Source of the DNA: a virus
Lineage: Duplodnaviria; Heunggongvirae; Uroviricota; Caudoviricetes
Reading direction: 5' to 3' (one strand)
Virus record (IMG/VR): IMGVR_UViG_2636416089_000002
DNA: 17,336 nucleotides
Made by a program: the position numbers and the translations under genes. Positions 4,660-4,918 of this stretch are shown here, in pieces (position 1 is the first letter of the stretch; every line of letters starts with the position of its first letter). The notes below the pieces were generated by a model. That model had not been told where the DNA came from. It saw only the letters and a list, made by a program, of their open reading frames with translations, and ran no database searches.

Positions 4660-4795
4660 GGATCATTAAGCCTGTCTCTGATAGGCTCATTCTGCTTTTG
4701 CGCAAAGCAGTGGGCCTGAGGTTTGCTTGTGAACCCAACGCATGAGCAGATGGCTGGTGGGTGCCCCTAACACCCACCAGCCGCCCATTTACCAC

Positions 4796-4823
4796 AAATA
4801 AAAAAGCCTTCACTGCGGAAGGC
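4796..4823 (-). terminator. Candidate intrinsic terminator downstream of the DUF968 gene
   Basis: Minus strand GCCTTC-cgcagt-GAAGGC followed by TTTTTTAT; a perfect 10-bp hairpin lies just 3' at 4754..4780. Confidence 0.55.
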
Positions 4824-4918
4824 GTCTGTAACAACCGAACTGATAGTCTGCCAGCCCCGCCATGCCCCCCAGCGTTCAAGAACCATCTGAATATCACGCA
4901 TCAACTTTCTCCACAAAA

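Follow-up and report, generated by a model that had tools for sequence, protein, structure and literature searches.

A lambdoid prophage of E. coli has probably lost its Q antiterminator gene and late promoter through a 702-bp deletion

Introduction

How can a lambdoid prophage switch on its late genes if no antiterminator gene stands in front of them? The late-gene logic of these phages runs from the Q gene through the promoter pR', a σ-dependent pause element and a terminator to the late genes (bioRxiv 10.1101/651190). A 17,336-nt stretch of viral DNA (IMG/VR record IMGVR_UViG_2636416089_000002), which was analysed over its whole length and is referred to as the window, seems to lack the first of these elements. 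An earlier note on this DNA described a hairpin-rich gap where Q is expected, and proposed that either the prophage is defective for late expression or its late genes are controlled by something else, such as an RNA element in the gap or an unrecognised protein. Here, we examine what the gap consists of, what is found at the same place in relatives, and which of these proposals the comparison favours.

Results

Gene order around the gap

The window genes at issue all lie on the minus strand, and their transcription runs against the numbering. In this order, the immunity region (around 12.7-13.6 kb) is followed by the Rha/Ash regulators, an O-like replication gene, a DnaC-like gene (7611-8519), the DnaB gene (6214-7614), an 85-aa ORF, and a ydfU-like DUF968/HNH gene (4919-5908; PF06147, E=1.6e-80; PHROG 96, E=9e-176). 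The DUF968 ORF was listed as 339 aa, with the true start 10 codons downstream giving a protein of 329 aa; an exact-protein look-up found the same 329-aa protein on sibling contigs. This is the last intact gene of the early-right operon, and it is separated from the start of a methylase gene (4659, extending to 3611) by a 259-bp interval, 4660-4918, that contains an intrinsic terminator and a strong hairpin. Three tRNAs (3312-3561), an esterase gene, a holin gene, DUF1327 and a lysozyme gene come next. The interval is thus located between early-right (replication/nin-type) and lysis genes of the same strand, and the gene order and the gap of about 260 bp are as previously described.

Several small RNA matches were recorded on either side of this interval, all on the minus strand. 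Tandem pairs of isrK sRNA and C4 antisense RNA are present at 10464-10652 and 11120-11308 (Rfam, 57-80 bits, all matches above gathering score), and each falls within the 5' portion of an ORF resembling an Ash/Rha antirepressor (10703-11365 and 9855-10706). The pairs look like a putative duplicated P1/P7-style c4-ant immunity module in the early-right operon. A match to the STnc100 sRNA family (3045-3235; 139 bits versus a gathering score of 47) lies between the tRNAs and the esterase gene, at a position that corresponds to the region just downstream of the stx2AB insertion in Stx2 phages.

The gap holds the first 14 codons of Q

A Pfam scan covered all 143 window ORFs with a length of 40 aa or more. 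No Q family is present among the 25 Pfam families listed; the remaining 14 families were each matched by a single ORF, none better than E=1.2e-5, so that a full-length Q would have shown up. A PHROG scan of the unannotated window genes returned no antiterminator family. The DUF968 protein was considered as a substitute for Q and ruled out, as its gene co-occurs with Q in every intact relative examined. The absence of a complete Q between the early and the late genes is therefore confirmed.

The further statement that no ORF resembles Q holds for a complete gene but not for the gap itself, where hmmscan revealed codons 1-14 of a Q gene (MRDIQMVLERWGAW; 4860..4901, minus strand, ATG at 4901). 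This stub aligns to positions 1-15 of the 118 positions of PF06530 (E=1.5e-4, 22.1 bits); the stretch being so short, its score falls under the gathering cut-off of 26 bits. No other ORF matches the family. The spacer between the DUF968 gene and the stub (4902..4918, minus strand) carries the Shine-Dalgarno sequence of Q, GGAGAAAG, and is identical in an intact sibling contig described below.

Comparison with an intact sibling reveals a 702-bp deletion

The window corresponds to NCBI contig JONA01000033.1 (GCA_000711565.1), which is equal in length and was 100% identical in the 11,908 nt retrieved. At the position of the gap, a sibling contig, JONB01000038.1 of GCA_000711515.1 (L004), is intact. 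Its identity to window positions 4860-11908 is 100.000% over 7,049 nt, and the Q stub is 100% identical to the start of the sibling Q (L004 7008-7049). The interval between the DUF968 and methylase genes measures 961 nt in the sibling versus 259 nt in the window, and exactly 702 bp of the sibling interval, which contains a Q gene of 126 aa, a 65-aa ORF and two terminator-like hairpins, are missing from the window. Whether intact relatives would point to a deleted Q was thereby answered with a clear yes.

Pairwise BLAST against relatives split the window at 4860-4863, the left part continuing into the tail of a hypothetical gene and the right part into the first 42 nt of Q. The two BLAST segments overlap by 4 nt, ATGG, at the junction (4860..4863, minus strand), and in L004 each end of the 702-bp segment carries the same tetranucleotide (7046-7049 and 7748-7751); the deleted allele reads ...CATGGCGGGGCTGGCAG... 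across the junction. ATGG at both ends is the signature of a putative microhomology-mediated deletion. A substitution at window position 4855, 7 nt from the junction, was found in the deleted allele only, and it may point to a more complicated event than a plain deletion of that kind.

To the left of the junction, the last 50 nt of the 65-aa gene, including its stop codon, were recognised at 4810..4859 (minus strand) by alignment to L004 7752-7801. Translation revealed a nonsense fusion ORF of 44 codons (4767..4901, minus strand), which runs from the Q stub into the out-of-frame tail of the 65-aa gene, then crosses the terminator and enters the 5' arm of a 12-bp hairpin. On the source contig this 44-aa ORF was called as a gene.

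Both the junction and this gene call recur in a second, independent assembly, GCA_000704525.1 (L007), with 1 mismatch in 7,502 nt. This recurrence bears on whether the strain could in fact possess an intact Q cassette, reads from paralogous prophages having been collapsed or mis-joined by a draft assembler. The source contig does come from a 2014-era draft assembly, and the differences between the window and its sibling on the late side of the gap could reflect mixed paralogous prophage copies. However, the identity at the junction amounts to just 4 bp, far under any assembler k-mer, the window flanks are colinear with relatives on both sides of it, and it was recovered in two assemblies. We consider an assembly artefact very unlikely.

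The late-side differences just mentioned are confined to two patches, 3390-3601 (with 11 extra bases at 3567-3601) and 3884-3972, the upstream 7 kb being identical. Recombination with another prophage copy, in patches, may account for them, or else local noise in the assembly. A metagenome contig (L006, 7008-8661) carries an identical DUF968 allele followed, after about codon 16 of Q, by a different Q allele of 127 aa and an ompC-like porin gene on the opposite strand. From this arrangement, the conserved N-terminus of Q appears to be a probable recombination boundary that coincides with the left end of the deletion.

The missing DNA contains Q and, by homology, the late promoter

The 126-aa Q of L004 matches PF06530 with E=6.4e-53 (178 bits), and so belongs to the Q21/Q933W family; comparison with the Q21 structures 6P18/6JNX gave E=7.7e-8. 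The matches to both the family and the structures indicate that the missing gene is a genuine Q.

The missing DNA also contains a conserved cassette, GCGGTCCGCA-N18-TAAGAGTGG, after which come ...AGCTTAA and a hairpin plus T-run. Its spacing is fixed in the 56 loci that contain it, out of 90 fetched; the 90 comprise 80 viral loci encoding Q relatives (63-100% identity) and other fetched loci. In most loci the cassette is placed directly after Q; the L004 copy is at 7401-7437. The part of it that contains the start site, from TAAGAGTGGTTAC to the terminator, is identical at 49 of 58 positions to the pR' region of VT1-Sakai, where a late promoter, a Q-utilisation site and the pR' terminator were annotated by the authors of that sequence. 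The Sakai pR' transcript, StxS, has been mapped experimentally as a 258-nt RNA ending at the second annotated terminator (PMC7547250). Its length and end site put the Sakai start roughly at the A of TAAGAG. The late transcript of L004 would, by homology, start near 7433, inside the deleted segment 7050-7751, and together with the conservation of the cassette this leads us to infer that pR' lay within the deletion. A simple consensus promoter scan found no canonical σ70 site downstream of the L004 Q.

In the window the cassette is missing. No block of the form GCGGTCCGCA-N18-TAAGAGTGG is present at any position of the window, and a search for TAAGAGTGGTTAC with up to 3 mismatches gave only chance-level matches. 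The promoter-proximal terminator of L004 (7457-7484) is deleted too. The third element of the missing DNA is most of the 65-aa ORF (L004 7604-7801), which is located inside the pR' leader, between the two terminators, with its stop codon within the distal terminator hairpin. Its product shows weak winged-helix similarity, with weak HTH matches only (TrmB, E=0.003; HTH_24, E=0.005). When the L004 pR' leader was searched against Rfam, matches to Trp_leader and isrK were weak and both below threshold.

The N18 segment differs between Q subgroups and in L004 contains the direct repeat AGTATGTC/AGTATGTT. Q21 is known to bind two 8-bp direct repeats (bioRxiv 10.1101/651190), and by analogy the repeat in N18 could be a candidate Q-binding element. 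In several loci (for example L038, L048, L049, L061, L072) Q is separated from the cassette downstream of it by 1.1-1.4 kb of other DNA. Phage phiP27 (L010 2239-3777, minus strand of the locus) has a gene of 1,230 bp, which its RefSeq record lists as a GIY-YIG nuclease, between Q and a leader that contains TAAGAGTGG without the GCGGTCCGCA half; a separate good σ70 promoter, TTGATT-16-TAAAAT (read by eye), follows its own, different Q allele.

The intact arrangement is common and the deletion is private

A megablast search with window positions 3000-7700 against phage genomes matched Stx2a phages, PhiR49_2 and phiP27, in which the stretch matching the query has about 2 kb more DNA that includes a gene annotated as antiterminator Q. 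In Stx2_95 and E. coli 700462 the annotated order is ydfU/DUF968, Q (381 bp), a 198-bp hypothetical gene, the methylase gene and tRNAs, and PhiR49_2 has the same order without the 198-bp gene. More broadly, annotations of Stx2 phages, phiP27 and complete E. coli genomes show the order DUF968, Q, 65-aa gene, methylase, tRNA.

With a 501-nt probe spanning the gap, a partial match was obtained in 5,024 of 5,426 complete E. coli genomes; at least 80% of the probe was held by 111 genomes, and the best 40 matches were all split around a Q gene. A junction-specific query, on the other hand, matched none of the same 5,426 genomes, and exact junction patterns were found in no GTDB species representative, IMG/VR record or JGI metagenome. 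A degenerate junction pattern retrieved two unrelated GC-rich MAGs only, which were rejected as chance matches. We conclude that the intact arrangement is very common in E. coli genomes, while only a few draft assemblies carry the deletion.

Per genome, the 501-nt probe matched a median of 2 places and at most 10. It is common for one E. coli genome to carry several prophages that have this module, and the Q of another lambdoid prophage might activate the late genes in trans, in which case the prophage would not be truly late-defective. Q, however, loads only at its own promoter-proximal site (bioRxiv 10.1101/651190), and the pR' cassette that would provide this site lies within the deletion, matches to TAAGAGTGGTTAC in the window being at chance level only. 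We regard rescue in trans as extremely improbable.

The terminator and hairpins that remain are parts of the normal leader

The intrinsic terminator reported at 4796..4823 (minus strand; T2 below) was confirmed. It consists of a 6-bp stem, GCCUUC/GAAGGC, with a 6-nt loop (4806-4823), followed on the minus strand by TTTTTTATTT at 4796-4805 (the U-tract UUUUUUAUUU), and has a folding energy of -8.9 kcal/mol. With a GC-rich stem-loop directly before a U-tract, it has the form of an intrinsic (Rho-independent) terminator. The pR' leader of intact relatives has T2 as its distal terminator; in the window, where T2 directly follows the early operon, it is the terminator retained ahead of the late genes. 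Its stem is invariant and its loop has three different sequences among 14 distinct relatives, and its similarity to the Sakai tR' is weak and non-significant (E=0.13). A terminator scan of positions 2800-5000 found 8 terminator-like sites, versus 2.2 +/- 1.6 expected.

The hairpin previously described as a perfect 10-bp structure at 4754..4780 is real and perfect but slightly longer: its arms, 4752-4763 and 4771-4782, form 12 GC-rich base pairs around a 7-nt loop, with no U-tract (4752..4782, minus strand). It folds with -29.1 kcal/mol (z = -5.8), and none of 200 shuffled sequences folds as well. Two small hairpins, also on the minus strand and conserved in relatives, lie just upstream of the methylase start (4692-4710 and 4669-4687), the second overlapping the methylase ribosome-binding region. 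The 181 nt from the right end of the deletion to the methylase start are about 95-100% conserved among 14 distinct sequences from intact, Q-bearing relatives.

These structures bear on the proposal that late control is independent of Q, a cis-acting RNA in the gap (put-like, riboswitch or sRNA) or an unrecognised protein having taken over. The 12-bp hairpin is very stable, and its variants (C to U, or CA to UG) stay paired only as G-U on the sense strand, which hints at a role at the RNA level. Against this, the same terminator and hairpins are present, nearly unchanged, in phages that carry Q and pR' just upstream, and it follows that they are part of the normal pR' leader and did not evolve as a replacement for Q. 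Compensatory double changes were seen at 0 of 55 pairs in the 14 distinct sequences; folding of the whole gap on the sense strand was unremarkable (z = -1.67); a scan of the sense strand of 4660-4918 found no promoter-like site; and covariance models of Rfam 15 gave no family at gathering score in this interval, the best match below it, with the cut-off relaxed to E<=1, being P26 (24.2 bits versus 36), driven by the hairpin. As to a protein, neither the Pfam nor the PHROG scan turned up a Q or antiterminator family among the window proteins. Neither form of the proposal was borne out, and we take Q-independent control to be exceedingly unlikely.

A different matter is whether the surviving leader (4669-4823) has a function as an RNA module in this phage family, perhaps as the 3' end of a processed, StxS-like sRNA, or as a processing or translation-control site of the methylase mRNA. 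This we think unlikely; if it were true, the module would have come under early-operon transcription after the deletion, and the scar would be a natural rewiring rather than pure loss.

The methylase gene carries a second inactivating lesion

Two window ORFs match the two halves of PF01555, and together they constitute a pseudogene of an N6/N4 DNA methylase (3611..4659, minus strand). A net -1 frameshift near 3940-3945, made up of a substitution and the loss of 1 nt (AGTGAGCTG to AGTCACTG), splits it into fragments of 240 and 151 aa; the genes of siblings are intact, at 349-352 aa (349 aa in L004). This is a second inactivating lesion, 0.7 kb from the deletion.

The esterase region (1324-2822, minus strand) is split as well, into a DUF1737 + SASA piece of 379 aa and a separate DUF6645 fragment of 112-114 aa. 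The pieces correspond to one 618-aa gene in E. coli 700462, with about 355 bp missing. The Q-intact L004 shares the split esterase, and the split therefore either predates the Q deletion or is a natural variant.

Discussion

Our reading, to which we assign a probability of about 0.9, is that the gap is the scar of a 702-bp deletion that took Q and the late promoter from a lambdoid prophage of E. coli type that is unremarkable in other respects. The ancestor would have carried the standard Q-dependent late cassette of a phiP27/Stx2-type lambdoid phage, in the order DUF968, Q, pR' start-site block, first hairpin with T-run, 65-aa gene, second terminator, 12-bp hairpin, methylase, tRNAs and lysis genes. 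Two ATGG tetranucleotides would then have recombined illegitimately, with loss of codons 15-126 of Q, the presumed pR' with its start site, the promoter-proximal terminator and codons 1-49 of the 65-aa gene, leaving the 14-codon stub joined out of frame to the distal leader. Such a prophage should make no Q and should offer no loading promoter to the Q of another prophage. Early-operon transcripts would be expected to run straight into the retained terminator, and the late and lysis genes would stay silent, so that the prophage would be locked in. The terminator and hairpins would be passive survivors of the normal leader and no replacement for Q.

Of the two proposals set out at the start, that of a prophage defective for late expression is supported, as the sibling and hundreds of relatives carry Q and a pR'-type cassette at this position. 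The HMM search of the window proteins against Q families had the stub as its sole result. We infer that the prophage is late-defective, in one clone. The view is that of the window, and another late promoter could lie in the rest of the prophage or in the host genome, both of which are outside it.

A decaying lambdoid prophage is of an already known kind; the explanation of the gap is ordinary, and no new control system is involved. What looked like a lambdoid prophage without Q is explained as recent decay in one clone, with little import beyond annotation. It does carry a caution, namely that regulators missing from draft prophage contigs need comparison with siblings before new biology is claimed. 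The reading also makes a prediction for the source strain, in which SOS induction should give no late or lysis gene expression, nor expression of any cargo in the stx slot. The near-isogenic pair JONB01000038 (intact) and JONA01000033 (deleted) is a natural control for work on this Q subfamily and its promoter cassette.

Comparison with known systems

The locus resembles in layout the late cassette of the Q21/Q933W family (PF06530; 6P18, 6JNX). The slot between replication/nin-type and late genes is the same, the window retains 14 codons of Q with their ribosome-binding site, and the sibling has the full gene, the conserved promoter-proximal block and the terminators. The window copy differs in being destroyed, with codons 15-126, the start-site block and the first terminator gone, and judged by what is left of it, the remnant cannot work as a Q cassette.

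The pR'-StxS-tR' leader of Stx phages (VT1-Sakai/Sp15, Sp5) shares with the intact relatives the segment from TAAGAGTGGTTAC to the hairpin and T-run, at the 49 of 58 positions given above, and in both a second terminator is located further downstream. The leader of the intact relatives is longer, however, with about 380 nt to the second terminator and a 65-aa ORF within it, while the window keeps the distal part only, ending in a terminator whose resemblance to tR' is not significant.

The HK022 put RNA is an RNA-only means of processive antitermination (PMC9378689). The window hairpins differ from it in lying downstream of a terminator, in coexisting with Q in relatives and in showing no covariation.

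The prophage as a whole has a parallel in cryptic or defective lambdoid prophages such as Qin and Rac of E. coli K-12, whose regulatory modules have decayed. As in prophages of the Qin/Rac type, lytic functions have been lost here by small deletions and frameshifts, and cargo (tRNAs, esterase) has been kept. Unlike in those prophages, the decay is very recent, the upstream 7 kb still being 100% identical to the intact sibling.
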